A DNA stretch of 32,000 nucleotides. It comes from Pedobacter nutrimenti. GTDB lineage: Bacteria; Bacteroidota; Bacteroidia; Sphingobacteriales; Sphingobacteriaceae. Position 1 is the stretch's first letter, and each line of letters starts with the position of its first letter. This document shows positions 1 to 6,658 of the stretch, in pieces. The notes below the pieces were generated by a model. The model was not told the origin of the DNA and did no database searches. It worked only from the letters and a program-made list of their open reading frames with translations. The translations under genes and the position numbers were made by a program. The DNA is taken from assembly GCF_032678445.1 (NCBI RefSeq), contig NZ_JAVTSQ010000009.1, positions 122,346 to 154,345 on the forward strand. The letters are read 5' to 3'.

Positions 1-64
1 GCTGATCATCTGATTCCGAGTTCAGTGAATCGTCTAATGGTACGTTATCTTCTGGATTTATCAT
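1..64 (-). CDS. Possible 5' end of a minus-strand gene running off the left edge (MINPEDNVPLDDSLNSESDDQ...)
   Basis: The reverse complement of 1-64 starts with ATG (62-64). It stays open for 21 codons to the window edge, and an in-frame TAA lies 4 codons upstream of the ATG. It is too short to assign a function. Confidence 0.25.
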   Translation of the reverse strand, partial: MINPEDNVPLDDSLNSESDDQ

Positions 65-153
65 CTTCTTTATTTTTTAGGAATATAACAACTCAGGCGA
101 ACTAATGTTTCAATCGATAATATTGAGTACCTTTAAGGTCAGAAAAAATAATT

Positions 154-585
154 ATGAATTACGAAGAGTATTACAATGAGCTTTCAAGTGAACTGGAGAG
201 GTCTGCAAGTGTATTGAAAGAATACGATGATTTGGAAGCACATTTTATGAGCTCAACGCACAGCCGTGTCAGGTATGAATCTTATGTTTTAAGTTCTATG
301 CCAGTGGGAATTGTTGACATCGTCTATATCCTCACCTCCGGAACCATGACAGTAAGCTTTGATATGGAGCTGAAAAATACTCTTAAAAACAATACCAGGT
401 TGCAGTACACATTAGGCGTGAGCCGTCTGTTTGATAAAGAGAGAGTCAAGATATTAGGCATTTTCAAATCACTAACTGAAATTGCAAATGACGATGTGCT
501 CTTAAACATATTAAATGGGATCAGAAATGACCTTAGCAAAAATGAAGACAGGATTGTTAAGCTTAAGGAGCTTATGAGAAGGTAA
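154..585 (+). CDS. Hypothetical protein, 143 aa, with helical charged N- and C-terminal segments
   Basis: This is the only long ORF here. An A-rich leader precedes it and a clear intrinsic terminator follows at 615-650. I recognise no motifs. Confidence 0.55.
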   Translation: MNYEEYYNELSSELERSASVLKEYDDLEAHFMSSTHSRVRYESYVLSSMPVGIVDIVYILTSGTMTVSFDMELKNTLKNNTRLQYTLGVSRLFDKERVKILGIFKSLTEIANDDVLLNILNGIRNDLSKNEDRIVKLKELMRR

Positions 586-614
586 TTCTTCTTCTGAAAA
601 ACATTTTTTTTTAC

Positions 615-650
615 AACGGGCATGGCTATATAAGTTATGCCCGTTTTTTT
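615..650 (+). terminator. Rho-independent terminator after ORF 154-585
   Basis: Stem AACGGGCAT (615-623) pairs with ATGCCCGTT (637-645) around a 13-nt loop, followed by a T-run to 650. It separates the upstream ORF from kaiC. Confidence 0.8.
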
Positions 651-724
651 ATGCACTAAACATTTAGGCATTATCCTTGTTATTTACATCATTCCCAAGT
701 GGAGAAATCTATAGAGCGTAAAAT

Positions 725-2491
725 ATGTCGGTAAAAAAAGAAACTTCATTACGTTTAAATAAGAAACTGGTCACAATGCCCAAGACTAAAACGGGCATTA
801 ATGGATTAGATGAAATTACCCTGGGTGGTTTGCCTTCTGGCAGGCCAACCCTGATTTGTGGTGGCCCTGGATGTGGGAAAACATTATTCTCTCTTGAGTT
901 TCTAGTTCGTGGAGCCCAGGATTTCAATGAACCAGGTGTGTTTGTTGCATTTGAAGAAAAGGCTGATGAACTGCTGATGAACGTGGCATCCCTGGGCTTT
1001 GACCTGGAAAAATTACAAAGAGAAAAAAAGATCAGGATGGATTATATCCATATTGACAAAACTGAAATTGAAGAAACAGGTGAATATGATCTGGAAGGGC
1101 TTTTTATCCGACTTGGTTATGCTATAGACAGCATTGGCGCTAAGAGGGTCGTATTAGACACGATAGAGAACCTCTTTGCCGGATTGTCTAACGAAGGGAT
1201 ACTGAGGGCCGAACTCCGCAGGTTGTTCCGGTGGCTAAAGGATAAAGGAGTAACCGCGATTGTAACTGGTGAAAAGGGAAAGGAAAGTCTAACCAGGCAG
1301 GGCTTGGAAGAATATGTTTCTGACTGTGTGATCCTACTCGATCACAGGGTAATTAACCAGATTTCGACCAGACGACTGAGAGTTGTGAAGTATAGAGGTT
1401 CGCTGCATGGCACTAATGAATATCCGTTTTTAATAGATCAGGATGGGATTTCGGTCTTGCCGGTAACCTCATTAACTTTAGATAAACCTGTTTCGTCAGA
1501 GACCATCTCTTCGGGGATCGGTGCACTGGACGAAATGTTTCCTATGGGGGGCTTTTACAAAGGAAGCAGCATCCTGGTTTCGGGAACGGCTGGTACAGGA
1601 AAGACCAGTATTGCGGCCAGCTTTGTAAATCATGCCTGCTTAAAAAAAGACAAATGCTTGTTTTTTGCATTCGAAGAATCGCCTGCGCAGATTGTCCGTA
1701 ACATGAAATCCATAGGCATGAACTTGCAGGAACATATCGATAATGGCCTGCTTCAGTTTTATGCTTCGCGTCCAACTATGTTTGGACTGGAGATGCATCT
1801 GGTTGCAATTCACAAGGCCATCCAGAAATTTAAACCTAAAGTTGTGGTGCTGGATCCAATCACAAATCTGATCACAGTAGGCAGCTTTAGCGACGTTAAG
1901 GCGATGTTGGTGCGGTTAATTGATTTCTTGCAAAACGAACAGATTACGGTGATGTTTACGGCATTAACTTTAAATACAGTTATAAGTGAACAGACAGATG
2001 ACGGTGTTTCTTCGCTGGTAGATGCCTGGTTGTATATTAAAGATATTGAACTTAATGGTGAGCGCAACCGGGGATTATACATTATGAAATCACGGGGAAT
2101 GCACCATTCCAATCAAGTGCGGGAATTTCTGATCACTAGCGGGGGGCTGGAACTGGTTGATGTTTATCTTGGCCCGGAAGGTATATTGACCGGTTCGGCA
2201 CGGGAAGCGCAAATGTTATTGGAAGAAACAGGACAAATTTTACATAGCCATGCGGTAAGCCGCAAGGACAGGGAACTGCTCCGTAAACGTAAAATACTGG
2301 AAGCAAAGATTGAGAATTTAAAATCTGAATTTGAATCGGCCGAAGAAGAACTGAACAAGATTTACACGGAGGAGGAGATTAAAAGGAGAGTAATGGAAGA
2401 AAACCGGCAAAAGATCACAGAAATCAGAAAAACCAGTGGAAAGTCTTTAGCTGACAAGCAACAGAATAATAAGTCAAAAACAAACAAATAG
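725..2491 (+). CDS. kaiC: KaiC homolog: double RecA/DnaB-like ATPase (CI+CII) with an extended C-terminus, 588 aa
   Basis: There are two Walker A motifs (GGPGCGKT and GTAGTGKT) and two catalytic Glu pairs (VAFEEK and FAFEES). Two Walker B-like motifs are present (VVLDTIENL and [10 protein letters not shown]). KaiC-type motifs [16 protein letters not shown] and [17 protein letters not shown] are present. The phosphosite region [11 protein letters not shown] aligns to EITDSHISTITD of S. elongatus KaiC. Confidence 0.95.
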
Positions 2492-2772
2492 TGGAAGAGA
2501 GATATGAACTGAGGCTGTATGTAGCTGGTAAGACCCAGAAATCAGTCACTGCACTTAGCAATCTGAAGAAGTATTGCGAAGAACATTTAAGCGGTCAGTA
2601 TTCCATTGAGGTGATCGATCTTCTTCTTCAGCCGCAACTGGCAGAAGGGGATCAGATCCTGGCTATTCCTACCTTGGTGAAGAAAGTCCCTGAACCGGTC
2701 AGGAAAATTATTGGAGATCTCTCCAATAAAGAAAAAGTATTAGTTGGATTAGATATCCGTCCCAGATCTTAA
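2491..2772 (+). CDS. kaiB: KaiB, canonical-looking, 93 aa
   Basis: The motifs [19 protein letters not shown] and [20 protein letters not shown] closely match cyanobacterial KaiB ([37 protein letters not shown]). The GTG start at 2491 shares 1 nt with the kaiC TAG stop (TAGTG). Confidence 0.93.
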
Positions 2773-2789
2773 TTGTATTACGAAGGATT

Positions 2790-3077
2790 ATGAATATAGA
2801 AGAGGAGCCAGTTTATATACTCAGGTTATTTGTTGCAGGAGCTTCTTCTAAATCGATTCGGGCAATCAATAACCTGCAGGGAATTTTAGACGAAAAGCTT
2901 AAGAATAAATATGAAATGGAAATCATTGATGTGCATCAGCAGCCTGAAATTGTAAAAAGAGATGATGTTGTTGCTGTTCCCATGCTCATAAAGAAATCTC
3001 CAGGACCGGAAAGGCGTCTTGTTGGAGATATGTCAGATACTCAGCGTGTACTGAGAGGATTAGGACTATTGGTATAA
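2790..3077 (+). CDS. kaiB: Second, more divergent KaiB paralog, 95 aa
   Basis: The motifs LRLFVAGASSKS, AVPMLIK and PERRLVGDMSDTQRVLRGLG follow the KaiB pattern. The gene lies 17 nt after the first kaiB and 4 nt before the histidine kinase. Confidence 0.85.
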   Translation: MNIEEEPVYILRLFVAGASSKSIRAINNLQGILDEKLKNKYEMEIIDVHQQPEIVKRDDVVAVPMLIKKSPGPERRLVGDMSDTQRVLRGLGLLV

Positions 3078-3081
3078 AATT

Positions 3082-4779
3082 TTGCTTTTGGAGAATTTAA
3101 AGACACTTAAGGAATTACAGGACCAATTACGGGAAACTCAGTTTCAATTGGAAGAAGCGAAAGATATGCTCGAGGCCATACGCCTGGGGGAAGTGGACGC
3201 GCTGGTTCTTAAAGGAAACGATGGGCATCAGATCTATACGCTGAAAAGTGCCGATCAGACCTACAGGATCTTTATTGAACAGATGACCGAAGGGGCAATT
3301 ACCCTGAATGAGAAAGGGAATATTCTGTATTGTAATTCCCGTTTTGCAGGATTGGTTGGTCTCCCCCTGGAAAAAGTAACTGGTCGGCCACTCGTGAAAT
3401 TTATAGATAAAAAAGACTTGAAGAAGTATGAAGTACTCATTGAAGGGGCGTGGGGAAATACAATAAAGGGTGAATTGAAAATACGTACCTCTACTGGCGA
3501 AAAAATCTGTGTACAATTGTCTTTGAAAATGCTGGACCTGGAAGAGGGGCTATCCATGAGCATCATTATTACTGATCTGACAGACCAAAAGAAGAACGAA
3601 AAATTATTAAAGCAAAGGAACAAACAACTAAAAAGAGCGGAGCGCATCGCAAATGATCTGAATGTTAATCTGGAGAAGACGGTTAAAGAAAGAACGGCAG
3701 AGCTCCGCCGAAATCAGGAGCAACTTGGCAGGATTCTGGAAACCATGGCCGAAGGCGTTGGCATAACCGATGTAGAAGGGAAATTGCTTTATGCTAATCC
3801 TATGGCACAAAAAATATTAGGATTAAAGCCAGGTGAAATTACAAAAGGAATATATGATAATCCTCAATGGCAAAACCTTCGTTTAGACGGTAGTTTTTTA
3901 CCAGAGGTTGAACACCCGATGCATCTGTCAATGAAAACAGGGAAGCCTGTTTATGATTTTGAAATTGGTATCCGACCTCCCGGCAGGGAAACCTTTTACA
4001 TCTCTATTAATGCTGCTCCCATTCATGATGAGGAAGGAAATATTACGGGGAGTATTGGCACATTTATGGACGTAACACATCGACGGATGGCTATCCGGCA
4101 GAAGGATGATTTCATTAGTGTGGCCAGTCATGAACTTAAAACGCCTATCACCAGTCTTAAGGCTTCTCTTCAATTGCTGAACCGCTTAAAAGATAAGAAT
4201 GAAATTTCCTCCAGTAATATGGTTCCTCTGCTCATTCAGCAGGCCAATAAGAGCATGGACAAAGTGACGGCTTTAATTAATGACCTTTTGAATGCGGGGA
4301 AATATACGGAAGGGCAGCTCCACCTCAACAAGACCCGCTTCAGTTTGGTGAAAATGATTAGAGAGAGCCTGCAGCATCTTCATGCTTCAGATGGCTATAA
4401 AATAAATGTAACGGGTGACGAAGATATCCTGGTTTTTGCAGATGCCGACCGGATTGAGCAAGTGGTCGTAAATTTTGTAAATAATGCAGTTAAATATGCT
4501 CCTGAATCCAAATTCATCTTTGTCTTGATATCAGGAACGGACCAGGAATCAAAACTGGAAGTTAGAGATGAAGGAAACGGAATTGCTGAAGAGAAACTCC
4601 CTTATATCTTTGAAAGATATTACCGTGTAGATGAAAGTGGCAGTCAATATTCTGGACTAGGGCTTGGGCTGTATATTTCGGCAGGAATTATCAAGAAGCA
4701 TGGAGGGAAAATCGGTGTGGAGAGTAAACCGGGAAAGGGAAGCACATTTTGGTTTAGTCTTCCCGCGGAGCAATTGTAA
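3082..4779 (+). CDS. Cytoplasmic sensor histidine kinase: coiled coil, PAS, coiled coil, PAS, HisKA, HATPase_c
   Basis: The H-box is SVASHELKTPITSL. ATPase boxes are NNAVKYAP (N), DEGNGI (G1) and GLGLGLYI/GKGSTFWF (G2). Two PAS-like cores are visible (MTEGAITLNEKGNILYCN and MAEGVGITDVEGKLLYAN). No TM helix is seen. The TTG start at 3082 is the first start-like codon after an in-frame TAG at 3061; the alternative start is ATG 3166. Confidence 0.9.
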   Translation: MLLENLKTLKELQDQLRETQFQLEEAKDMLEAIRLGEVDALVLKGNDGHQIYTLKSADQTYRIFIEQMTEGAITLNEKGNILYCNSRFAGLVGLPLEKVTGRPLVKFIDKKDLKKYEVLIEGAWGNTIKGELKIRTSTGEKICVQLSLKMLDLEEGLSMSIIITDLTDQKKNEKLLKQRNKQLKRAERIANDLNVNLEKTVKERTAELRRNQEQLGRILETMAEGVGITDVEGKLLYANPMAQKILGLKPGEITKGIYDNPQWQNLRLDGSFLPEVEHPMHLSMKTGKPVYDFEIGIRPPGRETFYISINAAPIHDEEGNITGSIGTFMDVTHRRMAIRQKDDFISVASHELKTPITSLKASLQLLNRLKDKNEISSSNMVPLLIQQANKSMDKVTALINDLLNAGKYTEGQLHLNKTRFSLVKMIRESLQHLHASDGYKINVTGDEDILVFADADRIEQVVVNFVNNAVKYAPESKFIFVLISGTDQESKLEVRDEGNGIAEEKLPYIFERYYRVDESGSQYSGLGLGLYISAGIIKKHGGKIGVESKPGKGSTFWFSLPAEQL

Positions 4780-4833
4780 AAAAAAAATATAAATAAATGA
4801 CATTAAAGTGGTGGTATATGTTGGAACAATAAT

Positions 4834-4841
4834 TATATTTG
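4834..4841 (+). promoter_or_regulatory. Candidate Bacteroidota -7 promoter box (TATATTTG)
   Basis: It is a perfect match to TAnnTTTG, but it sits about 140 nt upstream of ATG 4985 and I found no convincing -33 TTTG. Confidence 0.3.
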
Positions 4842-4984
4842 CTTCGAGAGCGTTAATTTAAGGGGGTAAATCGAAAGATTTATCTCCTTTTCTTTTTTTA
4901 CCCCTGACTCTCGGTTCATTGGATTAATTTCTTTTTCGGATCTCTAAATTGTATAGATTTGGCAGAAATTAAATCCTTTTCAAG

Positions 4985-6658
4985 ATGATCTACCTGCTGG
5001 GTATTCCCGTTGTCCTTATTCTTCTGTGGTTTTTTATAAGATTCAAGCGTCAGCAGGAAATGCGAAAACGGGCAGAAGAAGTCATCACCAAATGGTCTCA
5101 GCCCTCTGAACATTCTATAGACTTCAAACAGCTCAAAGGCTACTGCGCTTACTTTGCACAGGAAAGCGGAGGTCATTTATCTGATGCAATTGCTGCGGAT
5201 ATAGATCTTGAAAATCTGTTTGCCTATATAGACAGGACCAACAGTAAGCCGGGACAACAGTACCTGTACCAGAAATTAAGATCCGGGAAGAAAGACCCCG
5301 AAGCTTTGAAACAACTTGATCTTCTGGCAGAGCAATTTGCTGCAGATGAACACCTCAGGATCAGTACAGAAATTGAATTGTCTGCACTGGGCAGTAAGAA
5401 TGCCTATTATATACATGAATTGTTTACCACAAGTTATCAAGCTTTGTACAGCGGATGGATCAGTTTGTACATCCGCTTTGCTGCGCTGCTGTGGATTGCT
5501 TCAGTTGTATTGACTGTTGTTTTAAAGAACCAGATGTTTTTTCTGCTGAGCCTGGGTCTGACGCTGTTTAACTTCTACCTGCATTACGGCAATAAAAAGA
5601 AAATATCAAGCTATGTTCATTCGCTGCCGCAATTGTATAAGCTGATGAGGGCGGCCGAGCGTATACTGAAGCTGGTGGTCCATCCGGATGCTCAGTCCGC
5701 AAAGGCAAGCTTGAAGGAACTTGCACCGCTTCAGCGTTCCCTGAGTATGGTTAATTTTCAGGATAAAACAAGCGGAGATCCAACGGATCTCAGTGCCAGC
5801 GCACTTGAACTGATTAAAACCTTTTTGCTGGTAGAACCGGCAATGTTCCTCAAATCTGTAAACCGGATCAATCAGCAGAGGAGCAACATAGAAATATTGT
5901 TCAATTTTATAGGTCAAACAGATATGGCCATTTCAGTGCTTTCTTTAAGAACAGGACTGCCTTATTATTGTAAACCCGATTTCAGCGGGGTAAAAGAAGA
6001 ACTTAAGGTGACTGATCTGTACCATCCACTGGTGGAAAACTGTGTGGCCAATTCTATTAAAGTAAAGGCGGAACAGGGGGTATTGATCACGGGTTCAAAT
6101 ATGTCAGGAAAAACCACTTTTATCCGCTCTTTGGTCATCAATGCGCTCTTGTCGCAAACTTTATATACTTCCTGTTCCAATTGTTATTCGGCGCCTTTTA
6201 TGAACCTGTTTACCAGTATCCGGATGAGCGATGATCTGGAAGAACACAAGAGTTATTTTCAGGCTGAGGCTTTGTCGATCCTGGATATTGTGAATAAAAC
6301 GATGGGACAGAAGGAGAGCAGTCTGATTCTGATTGACGAGATCTTCAGAGGCACCAATACGATTGAACGTGTTGCTGCTGCTAAAGCCATTCTGTCTTAT
6401 CTTACGGCCCATAAGAATTTTACCTTCGTTTCTACACATGATCTGGAGCTGGCAGAGCTGCTGGGTAAGGAATATGCAGTGTATTCATTTGAAGAATTGG
6501 TATCTGAAACGCGACTGGTATTTGATTATAAGATTAAACCTGGGGTACTGAAAAATAAAAACGGGCTGGCTATTTTATCTTCAATGGGCTATCCACAGTC
6601 TATTATTGAAGATGCGACTGCCATCAGTACGGTTTTGCGAAAAAAATATGATCTTTAA
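4985..6658 (+). CDS. Membrane-anchored MutS-family ATPase (domain V only; no mismatch-binding, clamp or Smr/endonuclease domain recognised)
   Basis: Walker A is GSNMSGKTTFIRS. The SYFQAE motif, Walker B LILIDEIFRGTN and STHDLELA are all MutS domain-V signatures. An N-terminal TM helix (IYLLGIPVVLILLWFFI) and a hydrophobic hairpin (ISLYIRFAALLWIASVVLTVVL...FFLLSLGLTLFNFYL) are present. Confidence 0.85.
   Translation: MIYLLGIPVVLILLWFFIRFKRQQEMRKRAEEVITKWSQPSEHSIDFKQLKGYCAYFAQESGGHLSDAIAADIDLENLFAYIDRTNSKPGQQYLYQKLRSGKKDPEALKQLDLLAEQFAADEHLRISTEIELSALGSKNAYYIHELFTTSYQALYSGWISLYIRFAALLWIASVVLTVVLKNQMFFLLSLGLTLFNFYLHYGNKKKISSYVHSLPQLYKLMRAAERILKLVVHPDAQSAKASLKELAPLQRSLSMVNFQDKTSGDPTDLSASALELIKTFLLVEPAMFLKSVNRINQQRSNIEILFNFIGQTDMAISVLSLRTGLPYYCKPDFSGVKEELKVTDLYHPLVENCVANSIKVKAEQGVLITGSNMSGKTTFIRSLVINALLSQTLYTSCSNCYSAPFMNLFTSIRMSDDLEEHKSYFQAEALSILDIVNKTMGQKESSLILIDEIFRGTNTIERVAAAKAILSYLTAHKNFTFVSTHDLELAELLGKEYAVYSFEELVSETRLVFDYKIKPGVLKNKNGLAILSSMGYPQSIIEDATAISTVLRKKYDL

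Follow-up and report, generated by a model that had tools for sequence, protein, structure and literature searches.

A KaiA-less KaiC2-type operon in Pedobacter nutrimenti with two KaiB clades of opposite predicted fold and a kinase bearing a Kai-linked N-terminal domain

Within a 32,000-nucleotide (nt) stretch of the genome of Pedobacter nutrimenti (contig NZ_JAVTSQ010000009.1 of assembly GCF_032678445.1, positions 122,346 to 154,345; hereafter the window), we analysed an operon consisting of a kaiC gene, two kaiB genes and a histidine kinase gene, which very probably encodes a KaiA-independent KaiBC module of the KaiC2 type. That it belongs to the KaiC2/KaiB2 family is well established, annotations of the genes exist already, and the core of the system is known and would not surprise a Kai specialist. 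What is new is that the two KaiBs belong to two clades with opposite predicted folds, that the kinase carries a Kai-linked domain, and that there is a possible receiver partner. The literature that we found on tandem kaiB genes or on the operon kinase in Bacteroidota was limited to general statements, and in it we came upon no paper that deals with the probably fixed fold of the second KaiB, with that KaiB itself or with the Kai-linked domain of the kinase. The four genes, the products of the two kaiB genes being called KaiB1 and KaiB2 throughout, and the hairpins that bound them are as follows (aa, amino acids):

725-2491, forward strand: kaiC, of the KaiC2 or Rhodobacter sphaeroides type, 588 aa, its two ATPase halves, CI and CII, both RecA-like
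2491-2772, forward strand: kaiB1, 93 aa, GTG start
2790-3077, forward strand: kaiB2, the second kaiB, 95 aa
3082-4779, forward strand: soluble histidine kinase with two PAS domains, 565 aa, TTG start
615-645, forward strand: terminator-like hairpin and T-run upstream of kaiC, 13-bp stem with 6 GC pairs, tail TTTTTATGCA
4860-4889, forward strand: terminator-like hairpin and T-run at the end of the operon, 13-bp stem, tail TTCTTTTTTT

A conserved four-gene operon

The identities that an initial annotation, made from the sequence alone, had given to the genes are borne out by the Pfam and NCBIfam scores of KaiC, both KaiBs and the kinase, and the junctions that it described are found in both the open reading frame (ORF) list and the raw sequence. 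The stop codon of kaiC (TAG, 2489-2491) shares one base with the GTG start of kaiB1, giving TAGTG at 2489-2493, while the gaps between kaiB1 and kaiB2 and between kaiB2 and the kinase gene are 17 nt and 4 nt. This spacing suggests that the four genes are co-translated, and they probably form one transcribed unit. The upstream hairpin closes the preceding ORF (154-585) and separates it from the kai operon, which agrees with the same annotation, as does the non-photosynthetic Bacteroidota host. Both KaiBs are 100% identical to RefSeq proteins of P. nutrimenti, where they are labelled 'circadian clock protein KaiB' and 'circadian clock KaiB family protein'.

When one genome per species was scanned, 80 related loci came to light, and by tblastn and ORF mapping the order kaiC-kaiB-kaiB'-kinase is present in ~75 of them, with tight or overlapping junctions. 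Since the same four genes are found in the same order in so many loci, the arrangement is not due to chance, and the synteny check that the initial annotation had proposed comes out overwhelmingly in its favor. The loci fall in Sphingobacteriaceae (Pedobacter, Mucilaginibacter, Daejeonella and Arcticibacter), Chitinophagaceae and Spirosomataceae, and the identical gene order is seen in metagenome-assembled genomes (MAGs) of an Acidobacteriota (L075) and a Bacteriovoracaceae (L079). Among annotated plasmids, Pararhizobium qamdonense has kaiC, kaiB, a kaiB family gene and a hybrid kinase gene in this order, R. sphaeroides KD131 has kaiC, a single kaiB and an HWE kinase gene, and the plasmids of Rhizobium BG4, Sinorhizobium B11 and Falsirhodobacter are arranged similarly to that of KD131. 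Because Pararhizobium, Acidobacteriota and Bacteriovoracaceae also have two-KaiB operons, the two-KaiB form is widespread and is no peculiarity of Bacteroidota.

The suggestion in the initial annotation that the locus is a distinct architecture therefore has to be given up: it has already been noted that Bacteroidetes have no Kai type other than the KaiC2-type KaiBC system (PMC5520375), R. sphaeroides is known to have a kinase gene in its kaiBC operon, and tandem kaiB genes occur also in Alphaproteobacteria and in the two other groups just named, and are annotated in RefSeq.

When the operon was compared with the corresponding locus of a sister species (L001), the ratio of nonsynonymous to synonymous substitution rates (dN/dS) was 0.037 for kaiC, 0.019 for kaiB1, 0.099 for kaiB2 and 0.056 for the kinase gene, and purifying selection acts on all four. 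The synonymous rate itself (dS; 725-4779 of the window against 269-4321 of L001) is 1.08, 0.73, 0.28 and 0.40 for the same genes in that order, a roughly four-fold spread along the operon of which recombination inside it could be the cause. A horizontal-transfer signature was also considered and was rejected, since the operon and the window agree in G+C content (0.421 and 0.414, respectively) and there are no mobile genes on either side of the operon.

In one relative (L092), a bacteriophytochrome kinase gene (PAS_2-GAF-PHY-HisKA-HATPase_c; 1-1507, reverse strand) lies divergently next to the kaiC-kaiB-kaiB-kinase operon at 1841-5735, which may point to light as an input in some of the relatives.

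KaiC carries the C-terminal extension of KaiA-independent homologs

The window KaiC matches the Pfam KaiC family (PF06745) twice, at 363 bits, and the NCBIfam model NF006799 at 732 bits (cut-off 408). In a sequence search of the entire PDB, the top match was R. sphaeroides KaiC (8DBA) at 629 bits, with cyanobacterial KaiC at ~327 bits, and the phmmer alignment to 8DBA spans aa 19-554, i.e. it runs into the C-terminal extension. The identity to the KaiC of Cereibacter sphaeroides KD131 is 57.7%. The sites of interest were followed through 83 orthologues:

860-883, forward strand: CI Walker A motif GGPGCGKT (aa 46-53), G, GK and T positions invariant
953-958, forward strand: CI catalytic glutamates E77-E78, invariant in 83/83
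1583-1606, forward strand: CII Walker A motif GTAGTGKT (aa 287-294), invariant
1673-1678, forward strand: CII catalytic glutamates E317-E318, invariant in 83/83
2009-2014, forward strand: predicted phosphosites S429-S430, aligned with S413/S414 of R. sphaeroides KaiC
2192-2488, forward strand: C-terminal extension (aa 490-588), homologous to the R. sphaeroides coiled coil

Both Walker A motifs and both glutamate pairs are intact, as the initial annotation had stated. The two predicted phosphosite columns hold Ser in 81 and 83 of the orthologues, respectively, and T424 (1994-1996) is the equivalent of T426; the Ser-Ser pair is a signature of the KaiC2 subgroup (PMC5520375, PMC10076222). Following the conserved motif GPEGILTG, KaiC continues for 105 residues, where the R. 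sphaeroides protein has 100. Charged residues make up 44% of this tail and Pro and Gly are nearly absent from it, its a/d hydrophobic periodicity exceeds that of shuffled sequences (p = 0.004-0.04), and a long tail is present in 76 of the 83 orthologues, the hydrophobic columns being conserved among those 76. The window tail is thus probably a coiled coil.

An extension of ~50 aa has been shown to be typical of the KaiC2 subgroup, and in the same study it formed a coiled coil that pairs two hexamers and leaves the A-loops exposed, and conferred KaiA-independent autophosphorylation and nucleotide exchange; together with KaiB, the R. sphaeroides protein makes up an hourglass set by the ATP/ADP ratio (PMC10076222). 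It has further been reported that the Kai proteins found outside cyanobacteria are homologs of KaiB and KaiC, and that Bacteroidetes encode only KaiB2/KaiC2-type proteins (Schmelling et al., PMC5520375). With a tail-bearing KaiC of the KaiC2 type in a Bacteroidetes host, the lack of KaiA is thus as expected, and a mechanistic explanation for it has already been published. The initial annotation was right that KaiA is missing, as none of the window ORFs of at least 110 aa matches the KaiA family, but it overlooked the ~100-aa tail of KaiC, which is the published reason that KaiA is not needed (PMC10076222).

The same evidence bears on whether the module could be a self-sustained, KaiA-free circadian oscillator, with the KaiB1/KaiB2 pair or the kinase providing a KaiA-like feedback or delay and the phosphorylation of KaiC running free. 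The operon does have extra conserved components relative to the R. sphaeroides hourglass, and in cyanobacteria the thioredoxin-like domain of SasA cooperates in KaiB loading and adds robustness (10.1101/2020.06.17.158394). However, the nearest characterized system is a damped hourglass (PMC10076222), the same set of ORFs holds no KaiA-like or KaiA3-like protein, and no rhythm in Bacteroidota is reported in the literature that we found, so that an oscillator of this kind seems highly improbable.

Two KaiB clades with opposite predicted folds

Both KaiBs match the Pfam KaiB family (PF07689) over their full length, KaiB1 at 98.3 bits and KaiB2 at 88.6 bits (cut-off 27). Against the NCBIfam model NF006798 (cut-off 110), KaiB1 scores 110.7 bits while KaiB2, at 81.9, falls under the cut-off. 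The two window proteins are 43% identical. A neighbor-joining tree of 163 KaiBs placed 75/75 first-position genes in one clade (mean identity 81%) and 75/75 second-position genes in another (mean identity 58%), with an identity of 44% between the clades. As both clades are monophyletic across three Bacteroidota families, the duplication is old. KaiB1 is closest to the KaiB of R. sphaeroides (best PDB match 8FWJ_M) and to cyanobacterial KaiB, and is by its sequence the orthologue of the R. sphaeroides protein. At three loci of the Cyclobacteriaceae/Ohtaekwangia group (L076-78), the single KaiB is of the KaiB2 clade and KaiC has no tail, and hence there exist tail-less versions of the module that make do with KaiB2.

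To model the folds, AlphaFold2 was run with clade-specific alignments, following the approach of Wayment-Steele et al. (PMC10808063). The KaiB2 model (pLDDT, the predicted value of the local distance difference test, 92.6) has the order beta-alpha-beta-alpha-beta-beta-alpha, and its best structural match is the Legionella KaiB 4KUN (template modelling score, TM, 0.88-0.93; root-mean-square deviation 1.1 A). It also matches the fold-switch-stabilized KaiB on KaiC-CI (5JWR and 5JWO), R. sphaeroides KaiB bound to its KaiC (8FWJ_M), the SasA N-domain on CI (6X61) and KaiB-TV-4 (8UBH). The KaiB1 model (pLDDT 71) runs beta-alpha-beta and then helix-helix-strand; it matches ground-state cyanobacterial KaiB with a TM of 0.82-0.87, while its alignment to the fold-switched structures is limited to the first ~54 residues. 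The prediction is thus that KaiB2 is locked in the fold-switched, thioredoxin-like form that binds KaiC, and KaiB1 is predicted to be metamorphic and capable of the ground state. Experimental precedents for KaiBs that are fold-switched only are the Legionella KaiB and KaiB-TV-4, the latter confirmed by nuclear magnetic resonance (NMR) (PMC10808063).

With the three substitutions I68R/V83D/N84A, the KaiB of R. sphaeroides flips into its fold-switched form (PMC10808063), and at the positions that correspond to I68 and V83 the sequences give independent support for the opposite predictions. KaiB1 is hydrophobic at both in 75/75 loci (V70 and V85 in the window). In KaiB2, the V83 equivalent is Lys or Arg in 63 of the 75 loci, and likewise in 94 of the 97 homologs from the database (R89 in the window, 3054-3056), and the I68 equivalent is Glu or Lys in 52 of the 75 loci (E74 in the window, 3009-3011). 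The KaiB of R. sphaeroides interconverts over hours, its ground state having a lifetime of ~11 h (PMC11185700), and this slow switch is a property that a pre-switched KaiB2 would not have.

It could be supposed that KaiB2 is nothing but a redundant tandem duplicate, kept for dosage or as a backup copy. The two kaiB genes are indeed adjacent and of similar length, both proteins pass the Pfam KaiB threshold, and 20 invariant positions are common to them. Against this stand the separate clades and the age of the duplication, the low identity between the copies (44%) compared with that within KaiB1 (81%) or KaiB2 (58%), the systematic differences at fold-determining positions with the opposite folds that they predict, the purifying selection on KaiB2, and the loci L076-78 that retain the KaiB2 type alone. 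A redundant duplicate is therefore very unlikely.

A sequence kinship of KaiB2 with the N-terminal domain of SasA was also considered. The SasA model NF006800 gives weak scores for both KaiB1 and KaiB2 (28 and 35 bits), which do not discriminate, and the idea was dropped; for this reason the SasA analogy for KaiB2 is one of predicted fold only.

The kinase and its Kai-linked N-terminal domain

The kinase consists of the following parts:

3082-3591, forward strand: Kai-linked N-terminal domain (aa 1-170), a helix with EA..mLeAIR.GEVDAlV followed by PAS1
3721-4077, forward strand: PAS2 (aa 214-332), with PAS_9 and PAS matches
4099-4305, forward strand: HisKA dimerization/phospho-acceptor domain, His350 at 4129-4131 within SHELKTP
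4441-4770, forward strand: HATPase_c, N box at aa 467, G1 at aa 496, G2 at aa 525

The H-box and the N/G1/G2 boxes fit a classical sensor kinase of the HisKA family, and as it has no membrane segment the protein is soluble, as first annotated. The SasA model NF006800 matches it at 153 bits (cut-off 342), and in the transmitter part only (model positions 148-377). From its layout the kinase is not of the SasA type, the N-terminus being helix and PAS and the KaiB-like domain a separate gene, although the system may work like SasA. By eye, PAS1 was also considered as a LOV-type flavin sensor; the Cys of 'LYCNSRF' is placed where the PAS fold begins and outside any NCRFL motif, PAS1 has no assignable cofactor, and the candidate was rejected.

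It is the N-terminal domain that the operon kinases have in common. The window kinase and that of R. sphaeroides are 25% identical over 347 residues (E = 6e-18), most strongly in the first ~100 residues, and the Pararhizobium operon kinase is 36% identical over 208 aa, while the transmitters of the operon kinases differ (HisKA, HWE or hybrid HK-REC). When the 184-aa N-terminal segment was searched against 72,556 plasmids, 14 records matched, and 13 of these are exactly the records with a KaiC2-type kaiC, the segment lying just 3' of kaiB. Among database homologs of the N-domain, 7 of the 8 contexts examined place it directly after kaiB; in the eighth (P0347, a divergent homolog), the upstream gene is cut. 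On a metagenome contig (L086, 34-1249), kaiB is followed by a 290-aa protein in which the Kai-linked N-terminal PAS domain is joined to an AraC-type helix-turn-helix (HTH_18), which is a one-component version of the output. Since the kaiB-adjacent contexts carry HisKA, HWE, hybrid HK-REC and AraC-type outputs, the N-domain travels with kaiB across phyla, whatever the output, and such a linkage is the pattern that would be expected of a module that reads the state of the Kai proteins.

Two analogies can be offered for such a reader, and they are analogies only. The PsR domain of CikA binds fold-switched KaiB. Likewise, the PAS domains of the cyanobacterial KidA bind KaiB (PMC9478674).

A candidate receiver

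No receiver gene is present inside the four-gene operon. Beyond the four kai genes, the one neighbor that recurs widely is a gene for a stand-alone receiver, which is found near the module in 25 loci, directly 3' of the kinase gene in 9 and directly 5' of kaiC in 4; L088 and L091 have receiver neighbors too. The window also encodes a protein of this kind:

25809-26183, forward strand: stand-alone receiver, candidate partner of the kinase, 124 aa, Response_reg as its sole family match

Its identity to the stand-alone receivers in or beside the kai module of the Pedobacter loci L005, L012 and L023 is 38-43%, and we put it forward, tentatively, as a protein that the kai kinase may have for its partner.

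Comparison with characterized Kai systems

The system of R. sphaeroides KD131 (PDB 8DBA, 8DB3, 8FWI and 8FWJ; PMC10076222) shares with the window the Ser-Ser sites, a tail-bearing KaiC, the lack of KaiA, the order kaiC, kaiB, PAS kinase, and a homologous N-terminal domain of the kinase. It differs in its single kaiB and HWE-type transmitter, where the window has a second KaiB and HisKA/HATPase_c, and in that its operon is on a plasmid, whereas that of the window has no mobile-element context. Legionella pneumophila likewise has a KaiA-less operon of the KaiC2/KaiB2 type in a heterotrophic host, and its KaiB (Lpp1115, 4KUN), the best match of the KaiB2 model, crystallized in the thioredoxin-like form. 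Unlike the window, it has one KaiB, which is only modestly similar to either window KaiB (60-65 bits), and its reported role is in stress resistance (PMC5520375).

The KaiABC system of Synechococcus elongatus has a two-domain KaiC with matching catalytic residues; KaiB1 models on ground-state KaiB, and the KaiB2 model resembles both the fold-switched KaiB and the N-domain of SasA. By contrast, the window has no KaiA, has Ser-Ser rather than Ser-Thr, and has a KaiC with a putative C-terminal coiled coil. In the SasA of S. elongatus, the KaiB-like domain is fused to the kinase, whereas in the window the two are separate polypeptides and the kinase has PAS domains instead. A further parallel is KaiB-TV-4 of Thermosynechococcus vestitus (8UBH; PMC10808063), which, as is predicted for KaiB2, is a fold-switched KaiB copy alongside a metamorphic KaiB. 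Its fold-switched state was shown by NMR, while that of KaiB2 is predicted from clade-specific alignments, and KaiB-TV-4 forms one domain within a larger protein of cyanobacteria and is not a stand-alone gene in a kaiC-kaiB-kinase operon.

Proposed mechanism and alternatives

Considering these findings, the interpretation that we find reasonably probable as a whole is that the module is an hourglass or switch like that of R. sphaeroides, run by the ATP/ADP ratio, to which a second KaiB and a dedicated kinase have been added, its output resembling a SasA in separate parts. All of its biochemistry we infer. The KaiC tails would pair two hexamers into a dodecamer and hold the A-loops open, such that KaiC could autophosphorylate at S429/S430 without KaiA when ATP/ADP is high. 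KaiB1 would slowly pass from the ground fold to the thioredoxin-like fold and bind CI of the phosphorylated KaiC, and the bound KaiB1 would speed up ATP hydrolysis, with KaiC dephosphorylating as ATP/ADP falls. The outcome would be an hourglass reset by a daily or metabolic cue and not a free-running clock. KaiB2, being pre-set in the binding fold, may act like the N-domain of SasA and read the state of KaiC without the delay of the fold switch, either seeding the loading of KaiB1, as N-SasA does, or offering a docking surface. The N-domain of the kinase would then dock on the KaiB/KaiC complex and toggle the kinase/phosphatase activity of HisKA, PAS2 may add an environmental input, and the target would be a stand-alone receiver, possibly that at 25809-26183. 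We would give the specific roles proposed here for KaiB2 and the kinase N-domain slightly less than an even chance.

Several observations weigh against parts of this interpretation. Seven of the 83 relatives (L067, L068, L070 and L076-L079) have a tail-less KaiC and yet keep KaiB and the kinase, and so the KaiC tail is not essential to the module. The position-68 equivalent is uncharged in about a quarter of the KaiB2 sequences, and the proteins at the KaiB2 position in L075 and L079 are hydrophobic at both diagnostic sites. The confidence of the KaiB1 model is moderate, and the fold-switch predictions of AlphaFold2 depend on the alignment and have been criticized as memorization (PMC10836070, PMC11344769). 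The candidate receiver sits 21 kb away from the operon, and stand-alone receivers are common. Finally, in the 79 nt between the upstream hairpin and kaiC (646-724), neither a scan for sigma-70-type promoters nor one for the Bacteroidetes -7 consensus TAnnTTTG found a site; over the whole window this consensus occurs 32 times with 31 expected, i.e. at chance level.

A different view would be that the module is a switch responding to stress or metabolic state rather than a timer, in which energy or oxidative stress alters the phosphorylation of KaiC and thereby tunes resistance, with the PAS kinase as the upstream input. KaiC2 homologs have been tied to the way in which Legionella responds to stress and to the adaptive growth of Rhodopseudomonas palustris, and the operon kinase of R. 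sphaeroides has been proposed as a redox input (PMC5520375). The structural proximity of the KaiB2 model to 4KUN, the two PAS sensor domains of the kinase, and a host that lives heterotrophically in soil and does not obviously depend on light would all be in keeping with this. However, KaiC is far nearer to the hourglass KaiC of R. sphaeroides (629 bits) than to the other solved KaiCs and keeps the tail, the ground-state features of KaiB1 would be useful only for a slow delay, and the N-domain follows kaiB under any output, even a DNA-binding one, which fits a Kai reader better than an independent sensor. We thus hold a stress switch to be unlikely; the two views are also compatible and do not exclude each other.

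Returning to the hourglass with a second KaiB and a dedicated kinase, it can be extended to a more general proposal. KaiB2 and the helix-PAS domain of the kinase could be regarded as a 'split SasA', in which a permanently fold-switched KaiB2 would read KaiC at the CI ring and the Kai-specific docking domain would couple the state of KaiC to HisKA, HWE, hybrid or AraC outputs, the slow metamorphic KaiB being the timer and the fast pre-switched KaiB the reporter, and Kai systems that lack KaiA might have in this their general output route, in Bacteroidota as well as in Alphaproteobacteria, Acidobacteriota and Bdellovibrionota. In this generality the proposal is doubtful.

Other genes of the window

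The remainder of the window has ordinary Sphingobacteriaceae content, namely a SusC/SusD locus, glycoside hydrolases and two-component genes. Downstream of the operon, 4985-6658 (forward strand) encodes a 557-aa protein with a hydrophobic N-terminus and, of MutS, the domain V ATPase only, without the mismatch-binding domains. A Bacteroidetes -7 promoter consensus is found before it at 4954-4961, and a few further loci, from Pedobacter and Mucilaginibacter (Sphingobacteriaceae only), have homologs within 6 kb 3' of their kai module. Further along, in the 779-aa product of 19871-22210 (forward strand), an aminoglycoside-phosphotransferase-like kinase domain (APH) is fused to a class-III aminotransferase, and this ORF shares ~50 nt with the end of the glycoside hydrolase gene before it. 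Four ORFs of 120-233 aa, 154-585 (forward), 23677-24839 (reverse), 27752-28168 (forward) and 30273-30635 (forward), have no Pfam match. The first of these has no NCBIfam match either, and its C-terminus is conserved upstream of kaiC in L001 only.

Significance

Among KaiA-less Kai systems, it is the KaiC-KaiB core alone that has been solved, in R. sphaeroides. The locus described here, with its ~75 syntenic relatives, offers a testable proposal made up of a slow-switching KaiB, a switch-less KaiB, and a kinase whose first domain is all but confined to the immediate neighborhood of kaiB. Should this proposal not be true, the locus would be one further annotated member of the KaiC2/KaiB2 family. 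If it is true, the output arm of the non-cyanobacterial Kai timers would be defined, and culturable soil bacteria such as Pedobacter and Mucilaginibacter would provide a natural pair of KaiB folds for the study of metamorphic proteins.

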